Source: an uncultured bacterium (GTDB taxonomy: Bacteria > Hydrothermota > Tepidihabitantia > SM23-42). From it: a stretch of 64,000 nucleotides of DNA. Both the position numbers and the translations under genes were made by a program. The notes beneath the pieces are model-generated. The model searched no databases, was not told the DNA's origin, and saw only the letters and a program-made list of their open reading frames with translations. The DNA lies in assembly GCA_964419565.1 (NCBI GenBank), contig CAYQPW010000007.1:31398-95397 (forward strand). Reading direction: 5' to 3'. How positions within the stretch are numbered: the stretch's first letter is position 1; every line of letters begins with the position of its first letter. Below, in pieces: positions 691 through 55,378 of this stretch.

Positions 691-702
691 CGGGGGTGAG
701 AA

Positions 703-6056: not shown

Positions 6057-7003
6057 CTCTTATGTTCTCGATAAATAGATTGATGGAAGGCGACAAGCGT
6101 ACTATCGCCCAGGTCATTAGCATTATTGAGAATGACACGTCGACGGAAATACTTAAAAAGATCTTTCCCCGTACCGGCAATGCCTATCATGTTGGCATAA
6201 CCGGACCGCCCGGCGCTGGCAAGTCGACACTTGTCAATGCTATTGCAAAGAGGCTGCTTTCTAAAAAGAAAAAGATCGGGATAATTGCGGTTGATCCTAC
6301 ATCACCTTTTTCCGGCGGTGCCTTATTGGGTGATCGTATTCGGATGAACGACCTGTCCTTGAATCAAAATGTTTTTATTAGAAGTATGGCCTCCCGTGGC
6401 AGTCTTGGAGGATTAGCAAGGAAAACAAAGGATGCTGCTTTGGTAATGGATGCGGCTGGTATGGACTATATTCTTATTGAGACAATAGGTGTCGGCCAGG
6501 TCGAGCTGGATATAGCAGAGGTATGTGATACTACGGTCGTGGTTCTCGTTCCCGAATCAGGCGACAGTATTCAGGCGATGAAAGCAGGCTTACTGGAAAT
6601 CGCCGACATCATCGCTGTTAACAAAGGGGATCGCGAGGGGTGTGACCGTCTGCTTATGGAGTTGAAATTTGCGTTTGAATTACGCGAACAAAGAACAGGC
6701 TGGCATTTTCCAATTCTCAAGACGACCGCGATCAAGGAAACAGGAGTCGATGCGCTTGTCAATGCGCTACAAAAACATGAGGTCTATTTGCGTAAGAGCG
6801 GCCGACTTGAACAAGAGAGGAAAGCCAAAATACTGGTGCGTATCAATGAATTGATCAAGGACAGGATAGAATTGCATTTGAAAGAAAGGATCGTGAAAGA
6901 TAAGGAGCTCATAAATACCATAGATAAAATATACCGGCGAAAAACGAATCCGTACAGCATCGCTGATACGATAACCAGGAAAATATTAAAAGCTAAAAAG
7001 TAG
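6053..7003 (+). CDS. meaB: MeaB/ArgK-type G-protein chaperone for B12 mutases
   Basis: P-loop [16 protein letters not shown] and NKGD motifs. ATGA overlap with glnS stop. Directly upstream of a B12 mutase large subunit. Confidence 0.85.
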
Positions 7004-7012
7004 CGAGGGTAT

Positions 7013-8644: not shown

Positions 8645-8753
8645 AAGATGGAAGAGGGGTTTGGGTTTGGATGCTGGAGTGAAGATAGAGGATAGATCAG
8701 TATATATAAACTGGTTATTTAGTATCCAAACCATAACCAAATAACCATTTTGT
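8645..8753. repeat. intercistronic imperfect hairpin element, family 1, copy A
   Basis: Starts right after the stop codon with AAGATGG..GGGGTTTGGGTTTGGATGCTGGA. 3' arm is TATCCAAACCATAACCAAATAACCATTTTG, just before the ribosome-binding site of the next gene. Confidence 0.7.
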
Positions 8754-8767
8754 TAGCAGGGGGTTTT

Positions 8768-9256
8768 ATGACAAGAAAAATTAGGGTTCTCGTTGGCAAA
8801 CCCGGTCTTGATGGACATGACCGGGGTGCAAAAGTCGTGGCCGCTGCCTTGCGCGATGCCGGTATGGAGGTTATCTATACTGGATTGCACCAGACCTGCG
8901 AGAGCATTGTGGAGGCTGCAATACAGGAGGATGTCCATATTATCGGGCTCTCCATACTGTCGGGTGCACATATGACAATATTCACCAAGGTGCTGGCTTT
9001 ACTGGGTAAGAAACGAGCAAAGGACATTATCGTCATCGGTGGGGGGATTATACCTCAGGAGGATATGAAAAAGCTGGAAAAGAAAGGCGTGAAGAAACTA
9101 TTCGGTCCGGGCACGCCGACAACCGAGATCGTGGATTGGATCAGAACCAGGGTAAAGAGCAGCCAGCCCAGAAAGACAAAGCCGCGTACGTCTAAAAAGA
9201 AGAGCACTGCTAAGAAAAGCAAGAAGCCAAGAACAAAGGCAAAAGGCAGGAAATAG
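8768..9256 (+). CDS. icmB: B12-binding small subunit of acyl-CoA mutase, with lysine-rich C-terminal tail
   Basis: [15 protein letters not shown] contains the DxHxxG cobalamin-binding motif; SILSG and GGGIIP motifs present. ATG at 8768 is preferred over the TTG at 8750 because AGGGGG lies 6 nt upstream. Confidence 0.85.
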
Positions 9257-42118: not shown

Positions 42119-42874
42119 ATGCCTGAAAAAGATAATATAATGGATACAATTGCTGAATCCAATAAATCGGTCGTTACTGGGATCGATGAAAAGGACATCG
42201 AACATTGGATCACCATATCCATCCTGGGAAGAGAATACAAGGTTCCTGCAGGCCTTACGATCATGCAAGCGATGGAATTTGCAGGCTATCGATTTATTAG
42301 ATCGTGCGGTTGTCGAGCAGGATTCTGTGGTGCTTGTACGACCGTTTACAGGATCGAGGGCGATTACCGGTTGAAAACTGCGATGGCTTGTCAAACAAGA
42401 GTTGAACAGGGTATGTACCTGACTCAGATTCCTTTTACACCAGCCGAAAAAGCGAACTACGATATCAATAAACTATCCCCAGGTATTGAGGCTTTCTTGG
42501 CTAATTATCCCGAGATTCTAAGGTGTTTAGGTTGTAATGCGTGCACTAAGGCATGTCCTCAGGATATTGATGTGATGGAATATATCGCCGCTGGTAAAAG
42601 AGGCGATGTCGGATTGATGGCAGAAATATCTTTTGATTGCATAATGTGTGGATTGTGTGCAATACGCTGTCCTGCAGAACTCGCGCAGTATAATTATGCT
42701 CAGCTCGCGAGGAGGCTCCATGGGAAATATGAAACACCAGCTCCAGAACATTTAAACGCAAGGGTAAAAGAGATCGGCGATGGCAAATACAATTCAGAAC
42801 TCGATAAACTTGTGCAGACTAATACAGAGGAATTAAGAAAACTGTATACCGCACGGGATATAGAAAAGGCTTGA
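42119..42874 (+). CDS. succinate dehydrogenase / fumarate reductase Fe-S subunit-like protein
   Basis: N-terminal 2Fe-2S pattern SCGCRAGFCGAC...C, then CLGCNACTKACP and CIMCGLCAIRCP ferredoxin motifs. 251 aa. Confidence 0.75.
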   Translation: MPEKDNIMDTIAESNKSVVTGIDEKDIEHWITISILGREYKVPAGLTIMQAMEFAGYRFIRSCGCRAGFCGACTTVYRIEGDYRLKTAMACQTRVEQGMYLTQIPFTPAEKANYDINKLSPGIEAFLANYPEILRCLGCNACTKACPQDIDVMEYIAAGKRGDVGLMAEISFDCIMCGLCAIRCPAELAQYNYAQLARRLHGKYETPAPEHLNARVKEIGDGKYNSELDKLVQTNTEELRKLYTARDIEKA

Positions 42875-42884
42875 GGGGGTAAAA

Positions 42885-44540
42885 ATGGCAGAACTGAAAT
42901 TCATCGGTGGTTATCCAGAATACATGAGAAAGCATATCGAAGTGGTCAACAGCACCAGGGCTCAGCGCAAGGATTTCACCCCTAAAGCGATGACCATGGA
43001 AGAGCGTGATGAAGTGCTAAAAGTCCACCCTGATTATGCCCCTGGCGGGAAACGTGCGATCGGCTTAGGACCCAATAAAGGGGATATGGCACCGAATGAA
43101 GTGGCTGATCTACTTGAAGCATATCCTTTGATCAAGGGCGATGAAATAGATGTGAACAAACCGGATTACACTGTCGACCTTTTGATCGTGGGCGGCGGTC
43201 TGGCTGGAACTTCAGCGGCGGTCTGGGCAAATGATAAGGGTGTTGATACAGAGAAGATACTTCTTGTGAATAAATTACGGCACGGCGATGCTAATTCAAT
43301 AATGGCTGAGGGTGGTACTCAGGCGGCAGATCGAGATAATGATTCGCCAGCGCGTCATTTCCTTGATGCGATCGGTGGTGGTCATTTTACAAATAAACCC
43401 GATGTATTAAGAGCTCTTGTTGAAGATGCACCGCTCATTATGAAGTGGCTTTGCGATCTGGGTGCGATAATCGACCGTGAAAACGACAGCAGTTTTGTTG
43501 AAAAAGCCGGCGGTGGAACATCGAGAAGAAGGATGCATGCATGCAAAGACTACACAGGATTGGAAGAGTTGAGAGTTATCAGGGATGAATTCAGGAGCCG
43601 GCAGATACCGTGCATTGAATATTATCCGGTCATAGAAATCCTGACCGACGGCAATCGGGTAACGGGTGCAGTGCTCTACAATCTGGAGACCGGTGATTAC
43701 AAGATCGTACAGGCCAAAGCCACGATTTTGGCAACCGGCGGTTTTGGAAGACTCCATGTTCGTGGTTTTCCAACGACAAATCATTATGGTGCGACTTGTG
43801 ACGGTGTTGTCCTTGCCTACCGCGCCGGTGCCAGACTGAGAGATACGGATACGGTCCAGTATCATCCGACCGGTGCTGCATACCCTCAGCAGATAATCGG
43901 TCTTTTGCTAACCGAGAAACTAAGAGGCATGGGTGCGCAGCCGGTCAACAAAGATGGCGAAGCATTCGTTTTTCCTCTGGAACCACGTGATGTCGAAGCA
44001 GCGAGTTTTATTCGAGAGTGTTATGTGAAAGACAAGGGTGTTGTAACACCTACTGGTATGCGTGGTGTCTGGCTTGATACACCGATGATCGAGTTGAAAA
44101 ATGGCAGCGGCGCGATTGAAAAATCATTTCCGGGTATGTTTCGTATGTTCCAACGGTTCGATCTTGATATGCGTAAAGATCCGGTTCTTGTATTCCCTAC
44201 ATTGCACTATCAGAATGGCGGCGTTGAAACCGACCCGTGGGGAAAGACGAATGTCGATGGCTTGTGGGTTGCCGGTGAAGTTTCTGGCGGCGTGCATGGC
44301 AAGAACCGTCTCATGGGTAACTCAACCCTTGATTGCTTGGTTTTCGGTCGCAGGTCAGGGATCTCTACTGCCGAATATCTTAAATCTAATCCCGGGTATG
44401 GGAAATTAACGACCGATCATTTGAATAATTATGTGAAATTGCTCAAAGAGGCTGGTATCGAGACGACCCGTAAGGCACCTATTTTACTCCCTGAATACCG
44501 CGGTAAGGCAGTACTGGCTCGTATGATCGATATTTTTTAG
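42885..44540 (+). CDS. SdhA/FrdA-family FAD flavoprotein with N-terminal extension
   Basis: LLIVGGGLAGTSAA dinucleotide fold begins near residue 98. VQYHPTG, TLHYQNGG and GEVSGGVHGKNRLMGNS motifs. GDANSIMAEGG has Asn where SdhA has the FAD-linking His. Confidence 0.8.
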   Translation: MAELKFIGGYPEYMRKHIEVVNSTRAQRKDFTPKAMTMEERDEVLKVHPDYAPGGKRAIGLGPNKGDMAPNEVADLLEAYPLIKGDEIDVNKPDYTVDLLIVGGGLAGTSAAVWANDKGVDTEKILLVNKLRHGDANSIMAEGGTQAADRDNDSPARHFLDAIGGGHFTNKPDVLRALVEDAPLIMKWLCDLGAIIDRENDSSFVEKAGGGTSRRRMHACKDYTGLEELRVIRDEFRSRQIPCIEYYPVIEILTDGNRVTGAVLYNLETGDYKIVQAKATILATGGFGRLHVRGFPTTNHYGATCDGVVLAYRAGARLRDTDTVQYHPTGAAYPQQIIGLLLTEKLRGMGAQPVNKDGEAFVFPLEPRDVEAASFIRECYVKDKGVVTPTGMRGVWLDTPMIELKNGSGAIEKSFPGMFRMFQRFDLDMRKDPVLVFPTLHYQNGGVETDPWGKTNVDGLWVAGEVSGGVHGKNRLMGNSTLDCLVFGRRSGISTAEYLKSNPGYGKLTTDHLNNYVKLLKEAGIETTRKAPILLPEYRGKAVLARMIDIF

Positions 44541-44570
44541 CACAGATCATTGATATCGGCTTGATATATG

Positions 44571-44600
44571 AAGGGGCAGCGTGAAGCTGCCCCTTTTTTA
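44571..44600. terminator. rho-independent terminator between convergent genes
   Basis: AAGGGGCAGC-GTGAA-GCTGCCCCTT stem-loop (8 GC-rich bp plus AA/TT) followed by TTTTTT. Lies between the SdhA-like stop (44540) and the minus-strand stop (44625). Confidence 0.85.
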
Positions 44601-44624
44601 TTATTAACCGTAATCCGTTATCGG

Positions 44625-46208
44625 TTAACTGTCCAATATCTTGTTTACTTCTTCCTTGTCAACATCCATGACATAGGGGATACCCGAAATCTTGGCCGCT
44701 TCCTTGGTGATCGATGCGATGTCATCACGGGTGATGTGTTCGAGCGCGAATTTTCGGTTTCCAGTCATTAATTGCTTGAGCCCCTGGGCAAGCCGTTCAA
44801 TATATGTATATACACCCAAGGCGCCGGTTGGTACCTGGTCAAAATCTTTACCCAGTTCTTTGCGTAATTTCGGTGCAGTCACGAATATCTCTTCTTTTCT
44901 ATTCCCAAAACGCTCGACAAATACGGGTACTTCTGCTTCGTTTATCTTACGACCAATGGTTTTCCCGACCATCGCGGCACATAACGGAGCCCGGGCCATA
45001 CCCACGAGCTTTGTATAAGGTGCACCGAGCGCCAGGGCTTTAAATATCTGGTCTTCGAATGCGATACCGCCGGCAAATGCCAGGTCTGCTACATACTTGC
45101 CTTTCTTTGCCAAGCGGTGTGTATACTCATAGGTAAGCGAATGGATCTCGACCGGCGGTATACCCCATTCATTCATCATGCGCCATGGACTCATGCCCGT
45201 ACCGCCGCCGGCACCGTCAACAGTCAATAGATCGATCTTAGCTTCCGAAGCGAATTTTACAGCTCGTGCCAGATCAGCCGGACGGTAAGCACCAGTTTTT
45301 AGGAAGACATATTTTGCACCTGCTTGACGGAGTTCCTCGACTCTCTTGCAGAAAGATTCCAGCTCGACCATACCGATCCTAGAATGTCTTTCAAATTCAG
45401 AAAAGGCTCTTCTATTGAAGGCTTCGATAACATCCGGGTCTAATGGATCGGGTAAAACCACATAACCGCGTTTTCTCAGGGTCTGGGCTTTTTTAAGGTC
45501 CTTTATTTTTACTTCTCCGCCGATATCTTTTGCGCCTTGTCCCCATTTTAATTCAGCGGTTTCGACACCTAATTTCTGTATGGCAAATTCCTGTACACCA
45601 AGCCTCGTATCTTCTACGTTAGCCTGGATAATGATCATACCATAACCATCTTTCTGCCATTTCTTATAGGTTTTTACACGGTATTCCAGGTCTGGTGCTT
45701 TAAGGATCTTCCCGTTCTTAATCTCACTTGTCATATCCATGGCTACGACATTCTCGCCAATTGTAAGCATGCACCCGGCCAGGGCTGTGCCGATCGCGAG
45801 TCCGTCCCAGTTGTTCTTGGCTACATTTGTCGATCCCAGGCCCGGGACAACCATGGGGAACTTCAACTTGATGGATTTATTAGCACCCACTTTCTGGTTC
45901 AAGTTGACATTAGGGAAGATCGCTTTATCCGGATCAGCTTCGATACCGATCGCGCCTACGGCCGTTCCCATGATATTGAAGTGGGAATAATCGACTGGAT
46001 AGTTCTTTTCTGATGCAGCAGTTATGATTCCAAATGGCTGCGGATAGATAACTTCGTGACCGCGGTAAGCAGATTTACCGACTTCGCACATACCGATACA
46101 GCCATCCACACAGGTGACGCACATCCCACTTAAGGGTACTATAGAATCTTCAGTTCTATTTTTTGTTAAGGTTGCAGCTGACGCATTTATTTTTGATAAA
46201 GACGGCAT
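44625..46208 (-). CDS. glutamate synthase domain-2-like FMN/Fe-S oxidoreductase (GltB-related)
   Basis: VDGAGGGTGMSP FMN-domain signature and N-terminal CVTCVDGCIGMC cysteine cluster. ATG at 46208 follows AAAGGAG; the GTG at 46223 in the track overlaps that ribosome-binding site. Confidence 0.8.
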   Translation of the reverse strand: MPSLSKINASAATLTKNRTEDSIVPLSGMCVTCVDGCIGMCEVGKSAYRGHEVIYPQPFGIITAASEKNYPVDYSHFNIMGTAVGAIGIEADPDKAIFPNVNLNQKVGANKSIKLKFPMVVPGLGSTNVAKNNWDGLAIGTALAGCMLTIGENVVAMDMTSEIKNGKILKAPDLEYRVKTYKKWQKDGYGMIIIQANVEDTRLGVQEFAIQKLGVETAELKWGQGAKDIGGEVKIKDLKKAQTLRKRGYVVLPDPLDPDVIEAFNRRAFSEFERHSRIGMVELESFCKRVEELRQAGAKYVFLKTGAYRPADLARAVKFASEAKIDLLTVDGAGGGTGMSPWRMMNEWGIPPVEIHSLTYEYTHRLAKKGKYVADLAFAGGIAFEDQIFKALALGAPYTKLVGMARAPLCAAMVGKTIGRKINEAEVPVFVERFGNRKEEIFVTAPKLRKELGKDFDQVPTGALGVYTYIERLAQGLKQLMTGNRKFALEHITRDDIASITKEAAKISGIPYVMDVDKEEVNKILDS

Positions 46209-46251
46209 TTTTTCTCCTTTCACTGTAAAAGTTTTTTGGCGAATGGTAATA

Positions 46252-46273
46252 GGTTACGATGCCCGTTGTACGT
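46252..46273. repeat. left arm of inverted repeat flanking the four-helix-bundle ORF
   Basis: GGTTACGATGCCCGTTGTACGT. Its core ACGATGCCCGTT is complementary in 11 of 12 nt to AACGGGCTTCGT at 46720-46731. Confidence 0.65.
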
Positions 46274-46286
46274 ACAGTCCTGACGA

Positions 46287-46697
46287 TCACGAACCATTTT
46301 TATCATCCTGCCTAAACTGGCGCCATGCCGATAATAGATTATAAAGCTGGCGTCCAGATTTATCATAGACATCTATTAAATTTTCACAAAGCGAGGTATC
46401 TACAAGATGACCATAGATATCTCTTGTTTGACATATGCTTACAACTGTTTCATTACATTCAGCCATTGCATCGTCCAAATACTTGCGAAATCCAGACTTC
46501 TGATGCCTTTTAGCATAACCTTCAGCAATAAGGCGGGGGATAGCTTTTGAAGATCGGCTCAGTTGACTTACCAGATCATATTTCTCGTTCTTTAGCAATT
46601 GGGGGATCAGTTTTTTCATTACTTCTATACAGGCAGTGTATGTGTTTCGATACACCTCAAGGTCTTGAAAACTGGTTATTCGTTTTCTATTCTTCAT
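46287..46697 (-). CDS. four-helix-bundle protein (23S rRNA intervening-sequence protein / Avd family)
   Basis: 136 aa. FQDLEVY...QLSRSSKAIPRLIAEGYAKR is the hallmark of this family. Confidence 0.8.
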   Translation of the reverse strand: MKNRKRITSFQDLEVYRNTYTACIEVMKKLIPQLLKNEKYDLVSQLSRSSKAIPRLIAEGYAKRHQKSGFRKYLDDAMAECNETVVSICQTRDIYGHLVDTSLCENLIDVYDKSGRQLYNLLSAWRQFRQDDKNGS

Positions 46698-46710
46698 ACG
46701 TATCCCTTTG

Positions 46711-46748
46711 ACGACGAACGAAACGGGCTTCGTTGCCCTTGCCGATAC
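46711..46748. repeat. right arm of inverted repeat flanking the four-helix-bundle ORF
   Basis: ACGACGAACGAAACGGGCTTCGTTGCCCTTGCCGATAC. Contains a local AACGAA/TTCGTT hairpin and shares the CGTTGCCCTTGCCG motif with 49342-49356. Confidence 0.65.
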
Positions 46749-46751
46749 ACA

Positions 46752-47450
46752 TCATTTTTTACTTTTCCGTTGATCTGGCCTGCCTTCGCAAGTGCCGCAG
46801 TCACCGGTCGTTCCCATCCAGCATTGATAGTCATCGTGTGTTTCAATGCAGGTTGGTTCGAGTGAAAGACAGCCACTGCACAGGTCAGTCGTTGCATCTG
46901 GACCCTGACATCGTAACTGACAAGCCGGGCAGATATAGATGCAACCACCACACAGGCGACATGTTTCTGATCTTATGTCAAAAGGGGTGGTGATTTTCTT
47001 TTTATAACCCCGTTCAACGAAACCGATCGCACCTGCTTGCATCTGCTCTTTGCACATCCTGACACATTTTCCACACAGAATACAATCTTCATGTCGTACA
47101 GGTAGTCTTACCTTGGTGACGCTAAATTTTGATGCCAGGTCCTGGATCGTCTTTGATGAAGGGCAGATCGCAACGAGCATTTCGATCATCATCTTGCGCG
47201 CCTTTATTACTCTTTTCGTATTTGTGCGTACGACAAGTCCATCCTCGACAGGATAGGTACAAGAACTAACAAGTTTGGCACTGTCGCCTTCACCGATCTC
47301 TACAAGGCATAGCCGACAGCCACCATAAGGTTCTAACCCATCGTCATAACACAGTGTTGGGATTTCAAGACCATAGAACTTGCAAACCTCCAAAACCGTT
47401 GTATAACTATCAGGAACCCGGACATTGAGACCATTTAGTTTTATTGTCAT
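46752..47450 (-). CDS. NuoG/HydA N-terminal-like Fe-S protein (2Fe-2S plus 4Fe-4S), no catalytic domain
   Basis: CYDDGLEPYGGCRLCLVEI..SC 2Fe-2S pattern; CILCGKCVRMC and CRLCGGCIYICP ferredoxin motifs; Cys-rich tail. Ends at 232 aa with no H-cluster motifs. Confidence 0.75.
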   Translation of the reverse strand: MTIKLNGLNVRVPDSYTTVLEVCKFYGLEIPTLCYDDGLEPYGGCRLCLVEIGEGDSAKLVSSCTYPVEDGLVVRTNTKRVIKARKMMIEMLVAICPSSKTIQDLASKFSVTKVRLPVRHEDCILCGKCVRMCKEQMQAGAIGFVERGYKKKITTPFDIRSETCRLCGGCIYICPACQLRCQGPDATTDLCSGCLSLEPTCIETHDDYQCWMGTTGDCGTCEGRPDQRKSKK

Positions 47451-47462
47451 TTTTGCTCCTAT

Positions 47463-49256
47463 TTACTCGACCAGTATGGCTTCGAATCTGCATACTTCTG
47501 CACACGAACCACATTTTGTACATTTCTTTTGATCGATAGTGTGTACTTCTTTTTTCTTGCCTGAAATAGCATTTACGGGGCATACTTTCAAACAGGCCAT
47601 ACAGCCTGTGCAGCGTTCGTCAAGGATAGTATATTTTATTAGTGGTTTGCATACACGAGCCGGGCATTTCTTATCTTTAATATGCGCAATGTATTCGTCT
47701 TTGAAATATCTCATTGTCGACAAGACCGGGTTGGCTGCAGTTTGCCCAAGACCGCACATTGAGGCGTCCTTTGTCGCGATGGCTAGATCTTCAAGCAGCT
47801 CAAGATCAGAAAGCTCGCCTTTGCCCTTAGTTATTCTGTCAAGTATCTGCCACATCATCTGGGTACCCTCACGGCATGAAAGACACTTACCGCACGATTC
47901 GTCTCTTAAGAAATTCATAAAGTATTTGGCAACATCGATCATGCACGTCTCTTCATCCATGACGATCATCCCGCCTGAACCCATCATTGAACCGACTTTT
48001 GTTAGACTTTCATAGTCGATCGGTAGATCAAGGAGATTTTCGGGGATGCAGCCACCAGAGGGACCGCCTGTTTGAACTGCCTTGAAACGCTTGTTATTGG
48101 GGATACCCCCGCCAACATCATAAATGATTTCTTTTACTGTGAGTCCCATTGGTACTTCAACGAGTCCAGTGTTGTTTATTTTACCTACTAGTGAGAATAT
48201 TTTAGTACCCTTGCTACCTTTGGTGCCCATGCCAGCAAACCATTTCGCACCTCTGAGGATTATCTGGGGGACGTTCGCCCAGGTTTCAACATTATTTATG
48301 TTCGTAGGTTTATTGAATAAACCTCTCTTCACTGGATAAGGTGGTCTTTGTTTGGGCACACCGATGCGACCAGAGATCGCAGCTAACAGTGAAGTCTCCT
48401 CACCGGACACAAAAGCACCCGCACCGCGAACAACCTCGATCGTGAAGTTGAAGCCGGTTCCAAGAATATCTTTTCCAAGTAAACCATATTCATTAGCTTG
48501 TTTTATCGCGATATTGAGGCGCTTTAAGGCCAAAGGATATTCAGTACGAACATATATGAATCCTTTTTGTGCACCGATGGCTTTTGCACCGATCGTCATA
48601 CCTTCAAGTACAGCATGGGGGTCTGCTTCAAGGATACTCCGGTCCATAAAAGCACCTGGATCGCCTTCATCTGCATTGCAAACCAGATATTTCACTGGTT
48701 CCTTTTCTTCTCTGCAAAGCTCCCATTTCCGTCCTGTCGGAAACCCGGCTCCGCCACGACCACGAAGTCCCGAGGTTTTTATCTCATCGATTATTACTTT
48801 TGGTTCCATTCCAGAGAGTGCTTTTTCCAGAGCTTTATAACCGTCAAAGGCGATATATTCTTCAATATCCTCTGGGTCGATGCGACCGCGATTTCTCAAT
48901 ACGATCAATCGTTGGTGTTTGAAAAAACCAATATCACTCATTTTAGGTATCGGTTTTTCTTCCTTCGGCGGGACATACATTAATTTTTTTACGGGTCGCC
49001 CTTTTAAAAAATGTTCTTCAACAAGATGGGGGATATCGCGAACAGAAAGATTTTGATAGAAAATACCTTCGGGTTGTACAACGACTATCGGTCCACGTTC
49101 ACAGAACCCATTACATCCTGTTGATATGACCGCTATTTCTTTTTGCAGCCCTCTTTTTGCGATCTCGGTTTCTAGTGCTTTCTTGATCTCGAAAGACCCT
49201 GCCGCGACACATCCAGTTCCAGCACAGACAAGCAAATGTGTTCGATATTGTTTCAA
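47463..49256 (-). CDS. NuoF/HydB/HndC-like NADH-binding FMN Fe-S subunit
   Basis: N-terminal thioredoxin-like 2Fe-2S (LLVCAGTGC..GCNGFCERGP), GLRGRGGAGFPTG FMN/NADH motif, ESCGKCLSCREG N3 cluster, two C-terminal CxxCxxCxxxCP motifs. TTG start 5 nt after AGGAGG. Confidence 0.9.
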   Translation of the reverse strand: MKQYRTHLLVCAGTGCVAAGSFEIKKALETEIAKRGLQKEIAVISTGCNGFCERGPIVVVQPEGIFYQNLSVRDIPHLVEEHFLKGRPVKKLMYVPPKEEKPIPKMSDIGFFKHQRLIVLRNRGRIDPEDIEEYIAFDGYKALEKALSGMEPKVIIDEIKTSGLRGRGGAGFPTGRKWELCREEKEPVKYLVCNADEGDPGAFMDRSILEADPHAVLEGMTIGAKAIGAQKGFIYVRTEYPLALKRLNIAIKQANEYGLLGKDILGTGFNFTIEVVRGAGAFVSGEETSLLAAISGRIGVPKQRPPYPVKRGLFNKPTNINNVETWANVPQIILRGAKWFAGMGTKGSKGTKIFSLVGKINNTGLVEVPMGLTVKEIIYDVGGGIPNNKRFKAVQTGGPSGGCIPENLLDLPIDYESLTKVGSMMGSGGMIVMDEETCMIDVAKYFMNFLRDESCGKCLSCREGTQMMWQILDRITKGKGELSDLELLEDLAIATKDASMCGLGQTAANPVLSTMRYFKDEYIAHIKDKKCPARVCKPLIKYTILDERCTGCMACLKVCPVNAISGKKKEVHTIDQKKCTKCGSCAEVCRFEAILVE

Positions 49257-49291
49257 CTCAACCTCCTATGAAAAAAACAGGTAAGGGTATT

Positions 49292-49380
49292 GGGCTACGA
49301 TGCCCGTTTCGTAAGATAAGGTGACGTTTATATTGTCTCTACGTTGCCCTTTGCCGTTGAACGATACGGGTTGCGTTACT
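49292..49380. repeat. ORF-less copy of the repeat that flanks the four-helix-bundle gene
   Basis: GGGCTACGATGCCCGTTTCGT ... CTACGTTGCCCTTTGCCGTTGAACGATACGGGTTGCGTTAC. The arms can pair (about 13 bp including G-U). Lies in the 142-nt gap between the hndB-like and nuoF-like genes. Confidence 0.65.
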
Positions 49381-49398
49381 GTTACCTTTACCATTCTG

Positions 49399-49782
49399 TT
49401 AATAGGTTCTCTCACTGCCTACAGCTAAGGCATATTCTTTCACAACATTCCCTTTGAGGACGTGGTCTTCCAGTATCTTCTTCATCTTGGTTGTAGTTAG
49501 ATCGACATATTTCACTGGTGGTTTGCCGCTTATTTCGACGGTAGCCATTGGTTCACGGCTGCACAAACCGGCACATCCCGAGGTGGTGACGATTACGTCC
49601 CTTATTTTTTTCTTGTCGATTTCACTCATCAAGTTGGTGAGAATTTCACGAGCACCGGCAGCAATACCACAAGTCCCCATGTGTACTGTTATCTTGGCTT
49701 TCGCTTTACCTTGTCTTAGATTAGCTGTTCTTCTTACTTTATCCCTTATTTTTTCTAAATCGCCGATTTTCAATTTCTTCAT
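49399..49782 (-). CDS. thioredoxin-like [2Fe-2S] ferredoxin (HndB-like)
   Basis: 127 aa. VHMGTCGIAAGA and TSGCAGLCSREP cysteine pairs. Confidence 0.8.
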   Translation of the reverse strand: MKKLKIGDLEKIRDKVRRTANLRQGKAKAKITVHMGTCGIAAGAREILTNLMSEIDKKKIRDVIVTTSGCAGLCSREPMATVEISGKPPVKYVDLTTTKMKKILEDHVLKGNVVKEYALAVGSERTY

Positions 49783-50336
49783 TTATTACTCCTTTCATCA
49801 AGTTTTTTAAACTCTTTTTTTAAATTATTTCTCAAATATTTGATAACTTCAGAATTATTTAATGGTATATCTTTTAGGTCTTTCTTAATTGTTTTTGTAT
49901 CAAAGATAAAAGTATAATTGTTTTTATGGTGTTTATATAAAAAATCTACGTCCAGACCCTGGGTAGCGACTAAGGTCATCAATGTTTTGGTCATATCGCC
50001 GATAGGTTTACGGTCGATATGATCGTGCATAAAAGTTGCAGTTATTGTCGTACCTTTTCCTTTTTTCGATTTTATGTGGAAGCTGCCGTTTGCTTCTTTT
50101 GTTGCTTGAGCTAACATCGATAAACCAAGACCGATCCTTCTGGTTTTTTTGGTACTGAAAAATGGATCAAGAGCTCTAGTCAATGTTTTTTTATCCATGC
50201 CCATACCATTATCCTGGATCGTCAAAATCAACTTATTTCTTGCGGTATCTTCATTGATAGATATTTTAATCTTTTCTGCGCCAGCCGCAATGCTATTTTC
50301 CACGATATCAAGTACATGAAGTGAGAGGTCTTGCAT
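49779..50336 (-). CDS. HATPase_c-only protein (histidine-kinase-like ATPase without HisKA domain)
   Basis: N box VENSIAAGA, DNGMGMD (G1), GLGLSM (G2). 185 aa, no phospho-acceptor His domain. ATGA overlap with the next gene. Confidence 0.75.
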   Translation of the reverse strand: MQDLSLHVLDIVENSIAAGAEKIKISINEDTARNKLILTIQDNGMGMDKKTLTRALDPFFSTKKTRRIGLGLSMLAQATKEANGSFHIKSKKGKGTTITATFMHDHIDRKPIGDMTKTLMTLVATQGLDVDFLYKHHKNNYTFIFDTKTIKKDLKDIPLNNSEVIKYLRNNLKKEFKKLDERSNK

Positions 50337-50338
50337 CG

Positions 50339-51085
50339 CTATGCTTCCATAATGATATTTCGCCCGTCGCGTTTAGAAAAAGCCATTTTTATTTCACTCA
50401 AAGTTGGTTGTGCGAGTAGAAAAGACGTCGTGACTTTACCGATATCCTCGAGGAAGTGCGCATCCGAAGATGTTACTAATGGATATCGAGCGGTCGCGGG
50501 AAATTTAATGTTTACCTGAGCCCGTGTCGTGTTTGGAGAAATTTCAAGTGCATCGATATTAAGACCGTCGGGTATGAACCCGAGCTGCCCAAAAATGCTG
50601 TAGGTTTCACGATCAATATGAGAGGCTATAACCAGACCGCTATTGAGATGGATCTGCTTGACTATTTCAGCTAAAGGCAGTGTCGTAGCACTGATAAGGA
50701 GTCTGTTATTATACGCTTCAACTTCATCAAATTCATTTACAACAATCTGCTGTCCGAAAAGTTCTTCATTATTCTCACCCGGCATTAATGCTTTATAGAC
50801 CAATTTTTGCATTGTCAATACTGCATCTACAGTATCGAACAGTGCGATCATGTGGACTTCTTCGGAACTGGCTACTTCCATACCTGCTAATACAGCGAGG
50901 TCTTTTCCTTTTGCGGCATTAAATGTTGCTCTTACGTTCTCGGCAGAATTGTGATCACAAACTGCTATGATATCAAGCTTCATTTCCTCAGCTTTTGCCA
51001 CGATCCTTTTGGGTGACATCGTTAGGTCGGCACACGGCGACAAACACGTATGAATGTGGAGATCTGCTCGATAACATTGGAGCAT
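50339..51085 (-). CDS. PHP-domain phosphoesterase
   Basis: ADLHIHTCLSPCA and AVCDHNS motifs of the PHP fold; 248 aa. Confidence 0.8.
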   Translation of the reverse strand: MLQCYRADLHIHTCLSPCADLTMSPKRIVAKAEEMKLDIIAVCDHNSAENVRATFNAAKGKDLAVLAGMEVASSEEVHMIALFDTVDAVLTMQKLVYKALMPGENNEELFGQQIVVNEFDEVEAYNNRLLISATTLPLAEIVKQIHLNSGLVIASHIDRETYSIFGQLGFIPDGLNIDALEISPNTTRAQVNIKFPATARYPLVTSSDAHFLEDIGKVTTSFLLAQPTLSEIKMAFSKRDGRNIIMEA

Positions 51086-51444
51086 TACCGTATTCCAGAT
51101 ATGCCTACTTTATATAATCTACCGATCAATTCAAAAGCCGGTAGATCACTTGTGAGAATAATGATGTTTTCTGTTTTTGCTTTGTTTAGAGTCTCTGCAT
51201 CAGGTATACGGTCGTTAACTATAATTATGCCAGCCAATTCTTTTAGTTTAGCGACCGCAACGATATTCGGGTGCCCCTGCAACGTTACCCAAATGTCACC
51301 CGCTTTGGTATTGGCCATGACATCGCTGAGCAGATCACTTGCGTAGCCACCTTTGATTTCCCGCTCAATAAGCTCTGGGCAGGTGACTGCCTTCGTGTTA
51401 CATGTATCAATAACATCTGATATCTTTATTTTTTTATCGTTCAT
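51085..51444 (-). CDS. DRTGG-domain protein
   Basis: 119 aa. SDLLSDVM...VTLQGHPNIVAVA...GIIIVN...IIILTSDL..F pattern of the DRTGG domain. Confidence 0.7.
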   Translation of the reverse strand: MNDKKIKISDVIDTCNTKAVTCPELIEREIKGGYASDLLSDVMANTKAGDIWVTLQGHPNIVAVAKLKELAGIIIVNDRIPDAETLNKAKTENIIILTSDLPAFELIGRLYKVGISGIR

Positions 51445-52724
51445 TTCTTTCCCTTGTTTTTTCTGATAAATAAACAGCCACTTAATTGCGCTTCATCACG
51501 TGCCACATCTTCAGCAAATGTTCGACAATCAGGCGCACCGCATACACCGCAATCTGTGCCGGGTAGTCTTTTCAATGTTTTTTCTATTAGTTCGGTTTTC
51601 CTGATCGCCTTTTCTCTGTTTTTATCAAGAGGTGCGAACGGTTTGGGCTTTACAGCTGCCTCAAACGAGAAATATTTTTCTTTATACAGCTTTTTAACAA
51701 AATGAGCGTCGACTCTTTTTTTACCGCCAAAGGTTTTGATCAACCGAAGAACATTACTTTTTGCGACAAATCTGTTTTCAACGGTCAACGGGCCACCAAT
51801 ACAGCCGTCAGGACATATCAAACATTCAAGGTATTCGATATTCCTGAGTTTCCCGGCCTCAACATCTTCGAGGATCTTTATTGTATCATAGACACCTGAT
51901 ACTGAAGCAGAATGAAAGTATTTTAAGCCACGGATCTCACCGCCTTCTATGGTCCAGCCGATCCCGATCCCGCTTATTTGACTGTGGGCGTCGAGGATGC
52001 GCGGGGTCTTAGTTCTTTTTAATTTCAACATCACATCGTTATAGATCTCCTGTATCGATAAGGCACCATCGAGGTTCGATTTTTTCATAGTTTCCGGGTA
52101 ATTTATTGAGACCATTTTTGCTGCACAAGGTGTGATATGTATGATACCGATATCTTGTTCTGCTACATTACGTTCACTGGCAATGTCAGATCGCAGATTT
52201 TTTGCAGCTATTTCGCGTGGTGGTTCGATAGGGATGATAAGATCGCAGAGGCTGGGGAATAAACGCTGAATAAGCCGAACGACTACCGGGCATGTCGACG
52301 AGATAACTGGTTTTGGTCCTTTGTTCTCGTCCAAGTATTCCTCGATCGCCCGGCTTGTCATCTCGCACATCCAGGCTTCATCATAGACCAGGTCAAACCC
52401 AAGGTCTTTAACTACTGCAAGAATTTCATTTGGCATGACATGTTGACCAAACTGAGAATATAATACTGGAGATGGAAGCGCAACCTTAAATTTAAATTTG
52501 TCAAGATCTGCTGAGGATGTAGTGATCGGTATGACGGCATTATATGGGCAGACCCGTAAGCACTCGCCGCAGTCAATACAACGTTCCTCATTAATAACCG
52601 CTTTATGGTTTTTCACCCTTATTGCTCGGGTTGGACAATGTTGCATGCACCGGACACAGCCGATGCACTTTTTTTTGTCTATTTTTACCGAGTGAAAACG
52701 TCGAGTTTTAATCGTATGTCCCAT
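51441..52724 (-). CDS. [FeFe]-hydrogenase-like protein, probably sensory rather than catalytic
   Basis: Two N-terminal ferredoxin motifs (CIGCVRCMQHCP, CIDCGECLRVCP). H-cluster-domain-like motifs SSTCPVV, ITPCAAK and ECLICPDGCIGGP. C-terminal CGVCGAPDCRTFAE (RnfB-type Fe-S domain). Confidence 0.75.
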   Translation of the reverse strand: MGHTIKTRRFHSVKIDKKKCIGCVRCMQHCPTRAIRVKNHKAVINEERCIDCGECLRVCPYNAVIPITTSSADLDKFKFKVALPSPVLYSQFGQHVMPNEILAVVKDLGFDLVYDEAWMCEMTSRAIEEYLDENKGPKPVISSTCPVVVRLIQRLFPSLCDLIIPIEPPREIAAKNLRSDIASERNVAEQDIGIIHITPCAAKMVSINYPETMKKSNLDGALSIQEIYNDVMLKLKRTKTPRILDAHSQISGIGIGWTIEGGEIRGLKYFHSASVSGVYDTIKILEDVEAGKLRNIEYLECLICPDGCIGGPLTVENRFVAKSNVLRLIKTFGGKKRVDAHFVKKLYKEKYFSFEAAVKPKPFAPLDKNREKAIRKTELIEKTLKRLPGTDCGVCGAPDCRTFAEDVARDEAQLSGCLFIRKNKGKK

Positions 52725-53151
52725 TTAAATTAAATATCATCTCTAATCTGGTGCTCTTACCCAGAGTTGAACGTATATCGAAGTGATCTGAATTCTTTTT
52801 GATGTTAGGTAGACCCATGCCTGCGCCAAAGCCCATTTCTCTTACTTCTTCTGTTGCTGTTGAATAGCCTGGCTTCATAGCTAGTTCGATATCAGCTATA
52901 CCTGGTCCTTTATCTTCGACCTTAAGAGTTATATTCTTCGCGTTTATGATAACCTTCATTAGACCACGCTCCGCATACATGACAACATTCATTTCTGCTT
53001 CATACGCAGCAATGGCGACCCTTCGTATGATGTCGGGGTCAGCACCGATATCTTTCAATATATTACGTATTTTTATGGAAGATTCACCGGCGTTTATGAA
53101 ATCTCCACCCTTTATCCTAAAAACTCGTTCAAAAGCAGCTTTGCCACGCAT
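52708..53151 (-). CDS. RsbW/SpoIIAB-like anti-sigma-type serine kinase (HATPase_c)
   Basis: 147 aa. AAYEAEMNVV (N box), EDKGPGI, GFGAGMGL. Confidence 0.7.
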   Translation of the reverse strand: MRGKAAFERVFRIKGGDFINAGESSIKIRNILKDIGADPDIIRRVAIAAYEAEMNVVMYAERGLMKVIINAKNITLKVEDKGPGIADIELAMKPGYSTATEEVREMGFGAGMGLPNIKKNSDHFDIRSTLGKSTRLEMIFNLNGTYD

Positions 53152-53157
53152 TATTTA

Positions 53158-53517
53158 TTAATTTTTCGAGTCTATAATAACACCTTTTATACCGTTAGCG
53201 TGCAGTATCCCGCATGAATCGAACATAGAGAGATTTGTTGTGAGAAGAGCGATATCGCAGTCCTTGCTTAATTTAACTGTTTCGGCTGAAGGTTCTTTCC
53301 CCCGGACAAAGACCACTGCACAAATGCCTGCAATATCACATGTCCGGATGACCTGGACATTGACCAATCCGGTCAAGAGAAGTTTGCCAGGTCCTGAAAA
53401 TCTGAGGACATCGCTCATCAGATCCGAGGCTTTTGCTGATTTTACATCTATTAGCAATTTATCAGAGCCGCACAAGAGTCTGCAGTTGAGCAATTCTTTT
53501 ATTTTTTTCAGAGTCAC
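53158..53517 (-). CDS. DRTGG-domain protein (second copy)
   Basis: 119 aa, paralogous to 51085-51444 (ASDLMSDVL..LLLTGLVN..AVVFVRG..IALLTTNL..F). GTGA overlap with the nuoE-like stop. Confidence 0.7.
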   Translation of the reverse strand: MTLKKIKELLNCRLLCGSDKLLIDVKSAKASDLMSDVLRFSGPGKLLLTGLVNVQVIRTCDIAGICAVVFVRGKEPSAETVKLSKDCDIALLTTNLSMFDSCGILHANGIKGVIIDSKN

Positions 53518-54281
53518 TTTCTTTTTTTGGTAGTTCTTTTCTTTTTTGAACTTCTTGTTATTCTTTTTTTAGCTTTTTTCTTTATTTTTTTCTTCGCAGG
53601 TTTTTTAGTAATTATTTTTCTCTTTTTTCTCTTGATGCTGGTTGTTTTTTTACTCCTCTTTACGCGTTTTGCTGGAATCTGTTTTTTCGTGAGTCTTTGC
53701 CTTTTTGGTTTTTTTGTAATTTTTTTCTTAGCTTTTATCTTAGTTATTTTTTTTGTAGTTTTCTTTTTAGCTTTTTGTTTGATTTTCTTTTTTCCCTGTG
53801 CCTTCATTGCTTTTGGTTTTTCTTTATTCTGATTTTCGATGATTAAATCAGCTTTTTTAGCGGTCGCTTTCCCATAATATTTTCCATCAACAACGACGAT
53901 AGGAGCTAATGCACAAGCCCCGAGACATGCAACTGTCTCTAATGTATAATTACCATCTTTGCTTGTACAACCCGGCTCGAGCTTGAGTCGATCCCGCAAA
54001 CGATCGAGAACTGCTGGAGCACCACGCACATGGCATGCCGTACCCAGACAGACTGTTACCAGATGTTTACCACGCGGTGTCAAGCTAAAAGCACGATAAA
54101 ATGAAGCTACGCTATAAACATCGATCAGAGGTATGGACAGTTCTTCTGATACCATGCTCAAAATCTCAGGAGGTAGCCAGTTGTACGCATCCTGGATGTC
54201 CTGAAGCACAGCGAGAAGACCGGATTTTTTCTTTCTATATCGTTTAATAATAGTTGAAGCTTTGCTAGTATTTAGTTTCAT
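53514..54281 (-). CDS. NuoE/HydC-like [2Fe-2S] subunit with about 100-aa lysine-rich C-terminal tail
   Basis: CLGTACHVRG and CLGACALAPIVVVDG cysteine motifs of NuoE. The last 106 residues contain 58 K/R by my count. GGGAG ribosome-binding site. Confidence 0.85.
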   Translation of the reverse strand: MKLNTSKASTIIKRYRKKKSGLLAVLQDIQDAYNWLPPEILSMVSEELSIPLIDVYSVASFYRAFSLTPRGKHLVTVCLGTACHVRGAPAVLDRLRDRLKLEPGCTSKDGNYTLETVACLGACALAPIVVVDGKYYGKATAKKADLIIENQNKEKPKAMKAQGKKKIKQKAKKKTTKKITKIKAKKKITKKPKRQRLTKKQIPAKRVKRSKKTTSIKRKKRKIITKKPAKKKIKKKAKKRITRSSKKKRTTKKRK

Positions 54282-54314
54282 ATAACTCCCTTCAGGATAT
54301 CATATTAGCTGATT

Positions 54315-54342
54315 ATTATATTGAATTTCTCACTCAAGTCAA
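54315..54342 (-). promoter_or_regulatory. sigma-70-type promoter of the nuoE-like operon
   Basis: On the minus strand TTGACT (54342-54337), 16-nt spacer, TATAAT (54320-54315), about 34 nt upstream of ATG 54281. Confidence 0.6.
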
Positions 54343-54421
54343 TAACATAGAAAGCATGAAATCATATAGCTAGCAGGTCGCGCCAGGGCTTTTTTAGTCT
54401 AAATTGTGGTAGTTTTAATGG

Positions 54422-55378
54422 TTATTTTTCTTCTTCTAATAATTTGACTTTTTCGCGTGCATTTACGATATAGCGTTTGACATCCTTATAATCAGGACAC
54501 ACTTCTATGACCAGATTCCATTCGCTTATCGCTTGTTCAAGCCGATCGTTGACATAGTGTTCGATCCCTTTAAGATAGTGTTTTTCACAGTATTGCCTGT
54601 CTTTTTCTGATAACGGTTGATCAGGGGCTGGTTTGGGTTCTTTTTTTATTACTGTTTTTTCAATGACTACCGGTTTATCGATTAGCAGGGTATCGACGAC
54701 CGTTATTTTTTTTGTTACGACAGGAGGACGGAAGTTAAAACCGATCAGCAGTTTTAAGGTGTCTTCGTAGAGCACTAAAGCATGGATGAAACTTCGAAAA
54801 TCCAAGGATACTGCACCGCTGAGCAGACCCGGTCGGAAACCACCATATAAGCCTATACTAAAATCACCGATCGGTTGTTTAAGAGCGATAATCCCATGAG
54901 GGGTAATCTCTCGATTACGTAAGGAATCTTGTATTTCAACGGCTGCGGTCAACTGTCGCCAGGTATAGGAGATTCCGCCCCTGAGTATCTTGTCATCATT
55001 GAGAATATTGGAAAAGCTGGTACCTAATGATACCTTGCCGTGATACCATGCGCCAAGGTCAAAAAGCGGGTCGGTTTGGTCGTATATTTTCAGGATGCCA
55101 GCATTGAAACCAATCGAGAAAGGGATCTTTTTGACATGGTATGAGATACTGCCCCAATTTCTTCGTTCGCGGCCTTCATGCATGTTCGAGAAACCAAGAC
55201 CGAAGTCTAAAAATCGTGCAGAAGCGCTAAAGACGGTGATTTCGCCGATGTCTTTTGGTTCAATAACGACCTGATAATTACCTTGATAAGCAGTATATGC
55301 CGCATTCGAAAAAGTCTGGTAACTGATCGGTGTTGAGACACTATTGAGACTGAACGCTAAAATAATGAGGGTAAGCAA
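54422..55378 (-). CDS. hypothetical exported protein: beta-rich N-domain plus C-terminal TPR-like helix pair
   Basis: Hydrophobic N-terminus, alternating beta-strand-like pattern for about 210 aa, Lys/Pro linker, then KHYLKGIEHYVNDRLEQAISEWNLVIEVCPDY. TTG start 3 nt after the pepA stop. Confidence 0.4.
   Translation of the reverse strand: MLTLIILAFSLNSVSTPISYQTFSNAAYTAYQGNYQVVIEPKDIGEITVFSASARFLDFGLGFSNMHEGRERRNWGSISYHVKKIPFSIGFNAGILKIYDQTDPLFDLGAWYHGKVSLGTSFSNILNDDKILRGGISYTWRQLTAAVEIQDSLRNREITPHGIIALKQPIGDFSIGLYGGFRPGLLSGAVSLDFRSFIHALVLYEDTLKLLIGFNFRPPVVTKKITVVDTLLIDKPVVIEKTVIKKEPKPAPDQPLSEKDRQYCEKHYLKGIEHYVNDRLEQAISEWNLVIEVCPDYKDVKRYIVNAREKVKLLEEEK

Follow-up and report, generated by a model that had tools for sequence, protein, structure and literature searches.

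The window analyzed here is a stretch of 64,000 nucleotides from an uncultured bacterium of the Hydrothermota (assembly GCA_964419565.1, contig CAYQPW010000007.1, positions 31,398 to 95,397), and the subject of this report is a gene run on its minus strand. Read along that strand, the run contains the gene for a NuoE-like protein, six regulatory genes, and the genes for an HndB-like protein, a NuoF subunit, a short Fe-S-only protein (hereafter, the stub), a 23S_rRNA_IVP-type open reading frame (ORF) and a flavoprotein resembling the flavin mononucleotide (FMN) domain of GltB. We propose, with a probability of about 0.6, that the NuoE-like, NuoF-like, stub and GltB-like proteins form one soluble complex of Type 2 within the Bfu (HydABC-like) family, in which the HndB-like protein would be optional. 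Because the four-gene set recurs in many phyla, the operon probably encodes an undescribed NADH/ferredoxin-linked enzyme. Taken separately, it is highly likely that the four proteins act together, and fairly likely that the FMN of the GltB-like protein is the site of the third substrate. Domain content, cofactor motifs and conservation of the operon are direct observations.

Genes in the window were called from an ORF listing followed by Pfam and NCBIfam scans. The five proteins named in an initial annotation of this DNA (NuoE-like, HndB-like, NuoF-like, stub and GltB-like) were all found where that annotation had placed them, with the motifs that it had quoted. The run itself was longer than described, as six genes between NuoE and HndB (49779-53517) had been overlooked. 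For comparison, a scan of species representatives (one genome per species) yielded 587 loci encoding a GltB-like relative. Of these, 80 species-level loci, which represent archaea as well as more than 10 phyla, were retrieved together with their 10-kb flanks, and the window proteins were placed on them by tblastn. Complete genomes that contain the operon include CP070813, CP070677, CP070727 and CP070766. Denominators of 72, 57 and 53 refer to testable loci only. Hosts among the loci include WOR-3/Stahlbacteria, Aminicenantes, KSB1, Zixibacteria, Planctomycetota, Bacteroidota, Ignavibacteria, Firmicutes, Latescibacterota, Spirochaetes and Methanoperedens.

Linkage of the stub to the GltB-like gene

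In 72/72 testable loci the stub gene immediately precedes the GltB-like gene and shares its strand; the ends of the two tblastn hits are a median of 65 bp apart. Four loci have no stub match, and in each of them the GltB-like gene is less than 300 bp from a contig end. NuoF is present in 57/57 testable loci and NuoE in 50/53, while the genes beyond the operon vary from locus to locus. Adjacency in every testable locus is more than chance would produce. The link between NuoE/NuoF homologues and a PF01645 gene, for which a survey of other genomes had been suggested, thus recurs. The earlier proposal that an NADH/ferredoxin module is wired to a GltB-like subunit gains support from this recurrence and from the missing H-cluster domain described below; the direct wiring is something we infer.

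The stub (46752-47450, minus strand, 232 aa) is a BfuA-like protein that matches Fer2_4 and families of the Fer4 type (Fer4_7). It is of the NuoG/HydA N-terminal kind, with one [2Fe-2S] cluster site, two [4Fe-4S] sites and a family-specific Cys-rich tail. The initial annotation had described it in these terms and had expected no H-cluster domain; indeed, PF02906 (Fe_hyd_lg_C) was not matched in the Pfam scan, and a regular-expression search found none of TSCCP, MPCxxK and CxxGCxxGG. The stub therefore lacks the H-cluster domain and P1-P3 motifs of a catalytic [FeFe]-hydrogenase subunit, and PF02906 is matched only by the product of 51441-52724, one of the regulatory genes. Among 60 family members, Cys 34, 45 and 48 of the stub are conserved in 95%, and Cys 64, 123, 126, 129, 133, 164, 167, 170 and 174 in 100%. 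In the tail, Cys 177, 181, 191, 201, 210 and 218 are invariant and Cys 194 is found in 98%. The stub has neither an HxxxCxxCxxxxxC motif nor a C-terminal alpha/beta domain; as that motif is missing, so is the A3 cluster. Its closest solved relative is WorA (PDB 9mqx_A, 247 aa), which aligns with residues 3-187 at an E value of 7e-34.

An Fe-S-only protein in the position of HydA had been regarded as unusual. It turns out to be ordinary for the Bfu family, in which only about half of the HydABC homologues are hydrogenases according to the published classification (PMC9304861). A BfuA subunit with Fe-S clusters only and a separate catalytic subunit define Type 2 in that scheme (PMC9304861). The stub carries the N-terminal clusters expected of BfuA in the family as a whole (A1 [2Fe-2S] plus [4Fe-4S] clusters). 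Its motifs and domains indicate that A3 and A5 are absent, and the gene for a dedicated partner follows it in 72/72 testable loci, both in keeping with Type 2. The partners listed for Bfu cores are hydrogenase, Fdh, Nfn, F420, Wor, Bam, Codh, Por, Mbh, Nuo and Rub, none of them GltB-like; third substrates are typically of mid potential, roughly -400 mV (Table 1), and many are still to be found according to the authors (PMC9304861). Systems in which an Fe-S-only BfuA and a further catalytic subunit accompany a Bfu core are known already; the GltB-like partner, a NuoF-GltD fusion and an association with glutamate dehydrogenase (both described below) appear to be new. No NuoEF/GltB-like complex was found in full-text literature searches or in reviews on Bfu enzymes, Stn/Nfn, Hydrogenedentota and glutamate synthase (GltS), which does not prove that it is unpublished; the fusion and the glutamate dehydrogenase association were likewise not found in the literature searched.

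One of the nearest described counterparts, of Type 2, is WorABCSL of Acetomicrobium mobile (9mqx; PMC12318220, PMC9304861). Both systems have a NuoE/NuoF-type BfuBC core with a full set of clusters. Both also have an Fe-S-only BfuA of about 240 aa with A1, A2 and A4, without A3 or a catalytic domain and with a Cys-rich C-terminus, and in both a separate subunit, here the presumed site of the third substrate, is encoded beside BfuA. In WorA, which is likewise devoid of A3, a C-terminal Zn finger and an adaptor helix recruit the catalytic module (PMC12318220). The two systems differ in the partner, which is a TIM-barrel protein with GltS-type FMN and [4Fe-4S] motifs here and the tungstopterin pair WorL/WorS there. 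In addition, a polyferredoxin subunit is lacking here, and most family members replace the C-terminal ferredoxin-like domain of BfuB by a GltD domain.

One may ask whether NuoE, NuoF and the stub are instead a HoxEFU- or HydBC-like diaphorase, serving a hydrogenase encoded elsewhere or the H-cluster-domain protein of the operon, with the GltB-like gene as a mere neighbor. The best equivalog-level NCBIfam match of the stub is indeed HoxU (PRK07569, E 1e-31), which is also an Fe-S-only protein of NuoG N-terminal type (about 238 aa) encoded with NuoE and NuoF homologues, and hydrogenase-type regulators accompany the H-cluster-domain protein. However, the HoxU score is 109.9 bits, far under the cut-off of 333, and the NuoF subunit, unlike that of HoxEFU, has N- and C-terminal cluster domains of the Bfu type. 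Furthermore, the 64-kb window contains no NiFe hydrogenase genes, including HoxYH, and no HydA or HydEFG gene. The H-cluster-domain protein is of the sensory type and occurs in 3/80 loci, against 72/72 for the GltB-like gene after the stub. We consider the diaphorase explanation highly improbable. With HydABC/HndABCD the operon shares, in the window lineage, the order NuoE, kinase-like, HndB-like, NuoF, as well as regulators of HydS sensor, PHP and kinase type. The A subunit, in contrast, ends here after its Fe-S domains, and the H-cluster domain with its P1-P3 motifs is missing.

Two forms of NuoF and the diaphorase-type subunits

The NuoF/BfuB-type subunit of the window (47463-49256, minus strand, 597 aa) matches Complex1_51K and NADH_4Fe-4S in Pfam. 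It has the NADH/FMN site, an N-terminal thioredoxin-like 2Fe-2S domain, an N3-type 4Fe-4S motif and a C-terminal ferredoxin-like domain with two CxxCxxCxxxC motifs. These are the features of BfuB: the FMN/NADH site, the B1 [4Fe-4S] cluster, the N-terminal [2Fe-2S] and the C-terminal 2x[4Fe-4S]. Residues 3-594 align end to end with BfuB of the bifurcating NiFe-HydABCSL of A. mobile (7t2r_B, E 2e-256); this alignment pairs the Cys residues of the cluster motifs with Cys. Almost equally good matches are HydB (7q4v_B, E 1e-245), NfnB (9n5u_B, E 4e-228) and WorB (9mqx_B), which are likewise BfuB subunits of bifurcating enzymes characterized in structure and biochemistry.

The survey revealed that NuoF comes in two forms. 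In 39/57 testable loci it is fused to a GltD-like module, giving a protein of about 1,058 aa with the domains Complex1_51K, NADH_4Fe-4S, Fer4_20 and Pyr_redox_2. In the other 18, as in the window, it is short (about 600-620 aa) and ends in the 2x[4Fe-4S] domain. Both dinucleotide-binding Gly motifs are intact in the long form, as read from the sequence of locus L032, and no GltD-like sequence is present anywhere in the window. The closest relative of the window, locus L001, has a GltB-like protein 95% identical to that of the window, and its NuoF is in the fused form (5734-8814). The two NuoF proteins are 74% identical across their BLASTP alignment, which is gap-free to residue 540 and divergent beyond. 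Judging from these alignments, the C-terminal domain of NuoF is swapped between close relatives. At the C-terminus, the window protein carries a 57-aa 2x[4Fe-4S] domain and those of L001 and L003 a GltD-like extension of about 485 aa. The two forms amount to a natural experiment on the role of the BfuB C-terminal domain.

The long form raises another explanation: the operon might encode a transhydrogenase of Nfn/Stn type, exchanging electrons between NADH, NADPH and ferredoxin, in which the GltB-like protein would be an internal electron-transfer flavoprotein or a docking flavoprotein for ferredoxin or flavodoxin, and would have no substrate site. The domain set of the long form, with NuoE-, NuoF-, NuoG N-terminal- and GltD-like modules, is that of NfnABC/StnABC (9n5u; PMC7483475, PMC11829005). 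The intact Gly motifs are consistent with such a function, and an adjacent glutamate dehydrogenase could supply NADPH. Ferredoxin-dependent GltS alpha subunits, moreover, take electrons from ferredoxin directly. On the other hand, the GltD-like module is fused to BfuA in Nfn/Stn enzymes, while in the loci studied here it forms the C-terminus of NuoF or, as in the window, is absent. The window and 18/57 testable loci retain the GltB-like gene without any GltD domain. The characterized NfnABC and Stn enzymes have no GltB-like subunit and do not require one (PMC7483475, PMC9304861). Identity of 70-75% between phyla, which extends to the putative active-site motifs of the GltB-like protein, suggests a constrained catalytic site. 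A transhydrogenase thus seems improbable.

The remaining BfuC-type subunit of the proposed complex is the NuoE-like protein (53514-54281, minus strand, 255 aa), a NuoE homologue with a [2Fe-2S] site like BfuC itself (PF01257, E 1.3e-49, with HoxE/NuoE matches in NCBIfam). Its C-terminal 105 aa (53514-53830, minus strand) consist of Lys and Arg to 55% (KKKIKQKAKKK...). At most of the other loci the protein has about 282 aa, and a Cys-rich, zinc-ribbon-like extension replaces the Lys/Arg tail.

The HndB-like protein (49399-49782, minus strand, 127 aa) is a thioredoxin-fold 2Fe-2S protein, found in 8 loci, that matches the NCBIfam 2Fe-2S ferredoxin model fdxn_Clost (E 4e-10) and scores slightly under the PF01257 cut-off (23.4 versus 24.8 bits). 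It has three Cys residues only (38, 70 and 74), and His34, at the fourth ligand position, stands in the place of the first cluster Cys of the NuoF N-terminal domain, so that its 2Fe-2S site may be His-ligated or degenerate.

The GltB-like flavoprotein and its possible substrate

The GltB-like protein (44625-46208, minus strand, 527 aa) scores 57.5 bits against PF01645 (cut-off 20.4), as the initial annotation had anticipated. Its gene has a strong ribosome-binding site, AAAGGAG, before the ATG at 46208, and orthologues are 526-529 aa long. The protein carries CVTCVDGCIGMC at residue 30 and GGGTG at residue 334. At least 90% of diverse family members keep the four Cys of the N-terminal CxxCx3Cx3C motif (residues 30-41). 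Close relatives are very numerous: the top 120 database clusters show 73-95% identity to the protein and bear names from many phyla, and orthologues from different phyla, archaea included, are 70-95% identical. A library-wide HMMER search revealed an isolated PF01645 subfamily in which full-length relatives of less than 50% identity are few, and it offered no clue to function; NCBIfam has no model for the protein.

Comparison with E. coli GltB was made with hhalign. A diverse alignment of the family against the GltB FMN domain alone gave a probability of 78% (E 2e-5, 356 columns), while a shallow alignment against full-length GltB gave 27% over 81 columns. Two motifs of GltS are shared, QGAK(x4)GG and DG(x)GGTG(x)SP. 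The corresponding segments of the GltB-like protein and E. coli GltB are KWGQGAKDIGGE and KVAQGAKPGEGGQ for the first and DGAGGGTGMSP and GYDGGTGASP for the second; VEDTRLGV is likewise aligned with VASGRFGV. The synthase site of the Azospirillum enzyme we take to consist of Q969, K972, Q978, R992 and E903, the first two within the QGAK motif. In this numbering, Q224 and K227 of the GltB-like protein align with Q969 and K972, while the position of Q978 is held by a Glu (E232) that is invariant among close orthologues.

The name "GltB-like" is therefore apt for the FMN barrel, as indicated by PF01645 and the shared motifs, and fails for the rest of GltB. PF01645 is the sole Pfam family found in the protein, which has no glutaminase, central or GXGXG domain, and the region aligned to the 3Fe-4S motif of E. 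coli GltB, GCKYLRICHLNNC, contains no Cys cluster. Because the GltS 3Fe-4S motif is missing and an N-terminal CxxCx3Cx3C motif is present instead, the protein is, on the evidence of its motifs, not a glutamate synthase and belongs to a distinct subfamily that shares the GltS FMN site. As in GltBD, a GltD-type module with flavin adenine dinucleotide and 2x[4Fe-4S] sites belongs to the same operon in most loci; unlike in GltBD, electrons would enter through NuoEF and a NuoG-like wire.

Two stand-alone paralogues of the GltB-like protein lie beside operons at other loci, in L072 (5012-6601, minus strand) and L043 (4126-5709, plus strand); they are 51-61% identical and have the same N-terminal Cys motif. 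L043 is assigned to Dethiobacter alkaliphilus, a cultured carrier of the operon. By appearance, and unscanned, the neighbors of the Methanoperedens paralogue have N-terminal sequences like those of RibB and riboflavin kinase, and the Dethiobacter paralogue lies between two 266-aa genes that resemble IclR-type regulators.

For the proposed complex, a tentative course of electrons can be drawn. The NuoF FMN would oxidize NADH or reduce NAD+, and the C-terminal 2x[4Fe-4S] domain of NuoF would exchange electrons with ferredoxin. One [2Fe-2S] and two [4Fe-4S] clusters would make the stub a wire, and the Cys-rich tail of the stub would provide an extra metal site and a docking element. Electrons would then pass to the N-terminal four-Cys cluster of the GltB-like protein and on to its FMN, where the third substrate would be reduced or oxidized. 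Bifurcation or confurcation with ferredoxin by the short form is, in our estimate, slightly less likely than not.

Our best guess for the third reaction is 2-oxoglutarate + NH3 + 2e- <-> L-glutamate, which would be the synthase half-reaction without a glutaminase domain. It is favored by the QGAK and GGTG motifs, by the GltD fusion in most relatives and by linkage to glutamate dehydrogenase. In glutamate synthase, GltB naturally receives its electrons from GltD. A glutamate dehydrogenase gene of the ELFV family is found within 10 kb in 18/80 loci and is the only recurrent metabolic neighbor; 8 loci have it as the next gene downstream, 7 have it upstream in the same orientation, and in L051 it stands between the upstream genes and the stub. 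The assignment of glutamate/2-oxoglutarate as substrate is a tentative one, which we consider somewhat less likely than not. Its full extension, a widespread glutamate:NAD+/ferredoxin oxidoreductase that bifurcates or confurcates (in reverse, a 2-oxoglutarate reductive aminase) and exists with two forms of NuoF, would be doubtful.

Alternatively, the complex may be real and its GltB-like FMN subunit may act on something else, such as pyruvate/lactate, 2-hydroxyglutarate, glyoxylate, another 2-oxo, imino or 2-hydroxy acid, or an unrelated acceptor. Linkage to glutamate dehydrogenase would then reflect shared NAD(P)H or 2-oxoglutarate metabolism. An AF2 model of the protein has a TIM barrel core (pLDDT 71, with the barrel well predicted), and its nearest folds in a Foldseek search are FMN-dependent alpha-hydroxyacid oxidases acting on lactate, glycolate and mandelate. 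The first 100 or so residues, including the Cys motif, are at a pLDDT of about 30, and the model leaves the geometry of substrate and cluster unreadable. Partial alignment of the GltS synthase-site signature and the isolation of the subfamily also fit another substrate. The catalytic His/Arg motif of alpha-hydroxyacid oxidases is SNHGGRQ. In its place, however, the GltB-like protein has the GltS-type DG(x)GGTG(x)SP, and QGAK(x4)GG is conserved as well. That the only recurrent metabolic neighbor is glutamate dehydrogenase also argues against a substrate of this kind, which we regard as unlikely.

Several points weigh against the proposed complex or against glutamate as its substrate. Co-transcription and physical association of the subunits are deduced from sequence, as are bifurcation, the substrate and the direction in which electrons travel. 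In the window lineage an unrelated 136-aa ORF splits the junction between the stub and the GltB-like gene, and a promoter-like site with 10/12 matches lies inside it (46366-46338). PF01645 covers residues 286-416 only, which correspond to model positions 186-310 of 369 (125 positions). A phmmer search of the GltB-like protein against PDB chains gave no match at E <= 0.01, and the Foldseek matches are generic FMN TIM barrels with TM scores of 0.4-0.55. Of the presumed synthase-site residues, the R992 equivalent is ambiguous by one residue (R247/G248) and the E903 equivalent is unaligned. Recurring glutaminase, central or GXGXG genes were not found in the 80 loci or in the window, which has no class-II glutaminase gene. 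An NH3-dependent reaction would duplicate that of glutamate dehydrogenase. A glutamate dehydrogenase gene was not found in the window either. Finally, the 2-oxoglutarate/glutamate couple, at about -0.1 to -0.2 V, is far above the mid-potential third substrates of Bfu enzymes, which makes bifurcation with glutamate energetically odd and uncertain.

Bfu enzymes are a major route by which anaerobes balance NADH and ferredoxin. The operon, whose carriers include uncultured lineages of sediments and bioreactors, would bring to this family a partner of a wholly different cofactor class, the GltS-type FMN protein. Its loci number in the hundreds among species-representative genomes, in many anaerobic bacterial phyla and some archaea. 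Under the more doubtful reading of glutamate bifurcation, the amino-acid nitrogen node (glutamate/2-oxoglutarate) would be coupled directly to the NADH and ferredoxin pools, and the Bfu family would gain a new class of third substrate and a new domain arrangement. Should the substrate be glutamate/2-oxoglutarate, models of electron flow in amino-acid fermentation would have to change. As the terminal gene is annotated as glutamate synthase-related, it could pass for gltB and distort reconstructions of nitrogen assimilation.

Regulatory genes, operon boundaries and genomic surroundings

Six genes on the minus strand separate NuoE from HndB. The first (53158-53517) encodes a 119-aa accessory protein with only a weak PucR-like match (E 2.6e-4), which recurs only in L001, L003 and L062. 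A histidine-kinase-like ATPase, presumably regulatory, follows (52708-53151, 147 aa; PF13581, E 1.2e-8), with the same three loci as its whole distribution. The third gene (51441-52724) encodes a sensory-type [FeFe]-hydrogenase-like (HydS-like) protein of 427 aa, which matches PF02906 (E 2.5e-29) and has, in addition, two Fer4 domains and a C-terminal PF04060 FeS domain. A second 119-aa accessory protein (51085-51444), with no Pfam match and the distribution of the sensor set, is a paralogue of the first; the two cross-match at 24-31% identity. The last two genes encode a regulatory PHP-domain phosphoesterase (50339-51085, 248 aa; PF02811, E 4e-10, with PHP_C) and a regulatory HATPase_c kinase-like protein (49779-50336, 185 aa; PF02518, E 1.7e-16), of which weak homologues are found upstream in 13 loci. 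The complete sensor set (49779-53517) recurs only in the three loci mentioned above.

We considered the HydS-like protein as the missing catalytic HydA. Its motifs SSTCP (residue 143), TPCAAK (199) and CPDGCIGG (304) keep the cluster cysteines and have Thr in place of the proton-relay Cys. Motifs of sensory type and presence in 3/80 loci rule out that role and indicate an accessory regulator. Kinase and phosphatase genes around an H-cluster-domain protein are the pattern of sensory HydS-type proteins (PMC11406978). A sensor set between NuoE and HndB suggests H2- or redox-responsive control of a non-hydrogenase complex, and with such a set in this lineage the operon may serve as an alternative redox valve.

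In other loci, sigma-54 NtrC-type regulators (27 loci) and sensor kinases with GAF/HisKA domains (21 loci) often precede the operon. They stand before a small Cys-rich protein family of about 116 aa without a Pfam match (for example, L032 4724-5179), a member of which immediately precedes NuoE in 10 loci or more. Downstream neighbors other than glutamate dehydrogenase (GidA, PEPCK, PPDK, LarA, CinA, HsdM and others) are heterogeneous and were discarded as functional clues.

The near-consensus promoter said to head the run was detected at 54315-54342 (minus strand; sigma-70-like, TTGACT-16-TATAAT, 11/12 matches) and is the top site within 44300-54600. The region holds 18 promoter-like sites in total, no excess over the 21.8 expected after shuffling, and promoter and terminator scans have no power to settle co-transcription. 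At the other end, a GC-rich hairpin with an 11-bp stem lies between convergent gene ends (44570-44596, no strand assigned). It has a T-run on the plus strand; on the minus strand it is 3' of the GltB-like stop codon and has none.

The interval 46209-46751, previously treated as a gap, contains the 136-aa ORF mentioned above (46287-46697, minus strand), a four-helix-bundle protein of the 23S_rRNA_IVP family (PF05635, E 1.6e-15; TIGR02436, E 1.8e-13). Divergent IVP ORFs occupy the same slot in L001 (9515-9898) and in L003, where about 94 bp separate it from the GltB-like gene downstream. These copies have diverged strongly: the window query has no tblastn match in L001 and is 31% identical in L003, while the flanking genes are 80-95% identical. 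An insertion at this point is confined to the window lineage, and elsewhere the two genes are mostly 5-140 bp apart. The IVP ORF is probably not a subunit of the complex.

Next to the operon, a 318-aa ORF with no Pfam match (54422-55378, minus strand) lies between an M17 aminopeptidase gene and the operon promoter. On the other side, a convergent pair on the plus strand (42119-44540) encodes a 251-aa 2Fe-2S/4Fe-4S protein and a 551-aa flavoprotein resembling SdhA, FrdA, TfrA and NadB. Every NCBIfam score of the pair is under the family cut-off, and its position beside the operon is conserved only in L001-L003. The pair could form a soluble enzyme similar to fumarate reductase or aspartate oxidase.

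The wider window contains M17 and M42 aminopeptidases, an aminotransferase, alanine dehydrogenase, methionine gamma-lyase and the methylmalonyl-CoA pathway. These flanking genes for amino-acid catabolism, together with that pathway, suggest that the host is an amino-acid fermenter. Positions 2883-33970 (plus strand) form a dense block of amino-acid and propionate metabolism, with a beta-eliminating lyase, two methylmalonyl-CoA mutase sets with MeaB and a B12-binding subunit, and two sets of carboxyltransferase, biotin carboxylase and biotin carboxyl carrier protein. The alanine dehydrogenase and the methionine gamma-lyase lie in this block, as do a CoA-transferase, thiolases, enoyl-CoA hydratases and a corrinoid adenosyltransferase. 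Before it, at 22-2871 (plus strand), EtfB- and EtfA-like genes are followed by a gene for a CCG-domain/4Fe-4S protein, and the three may constitute another module of flavin-based electron transfer or bifurcation.

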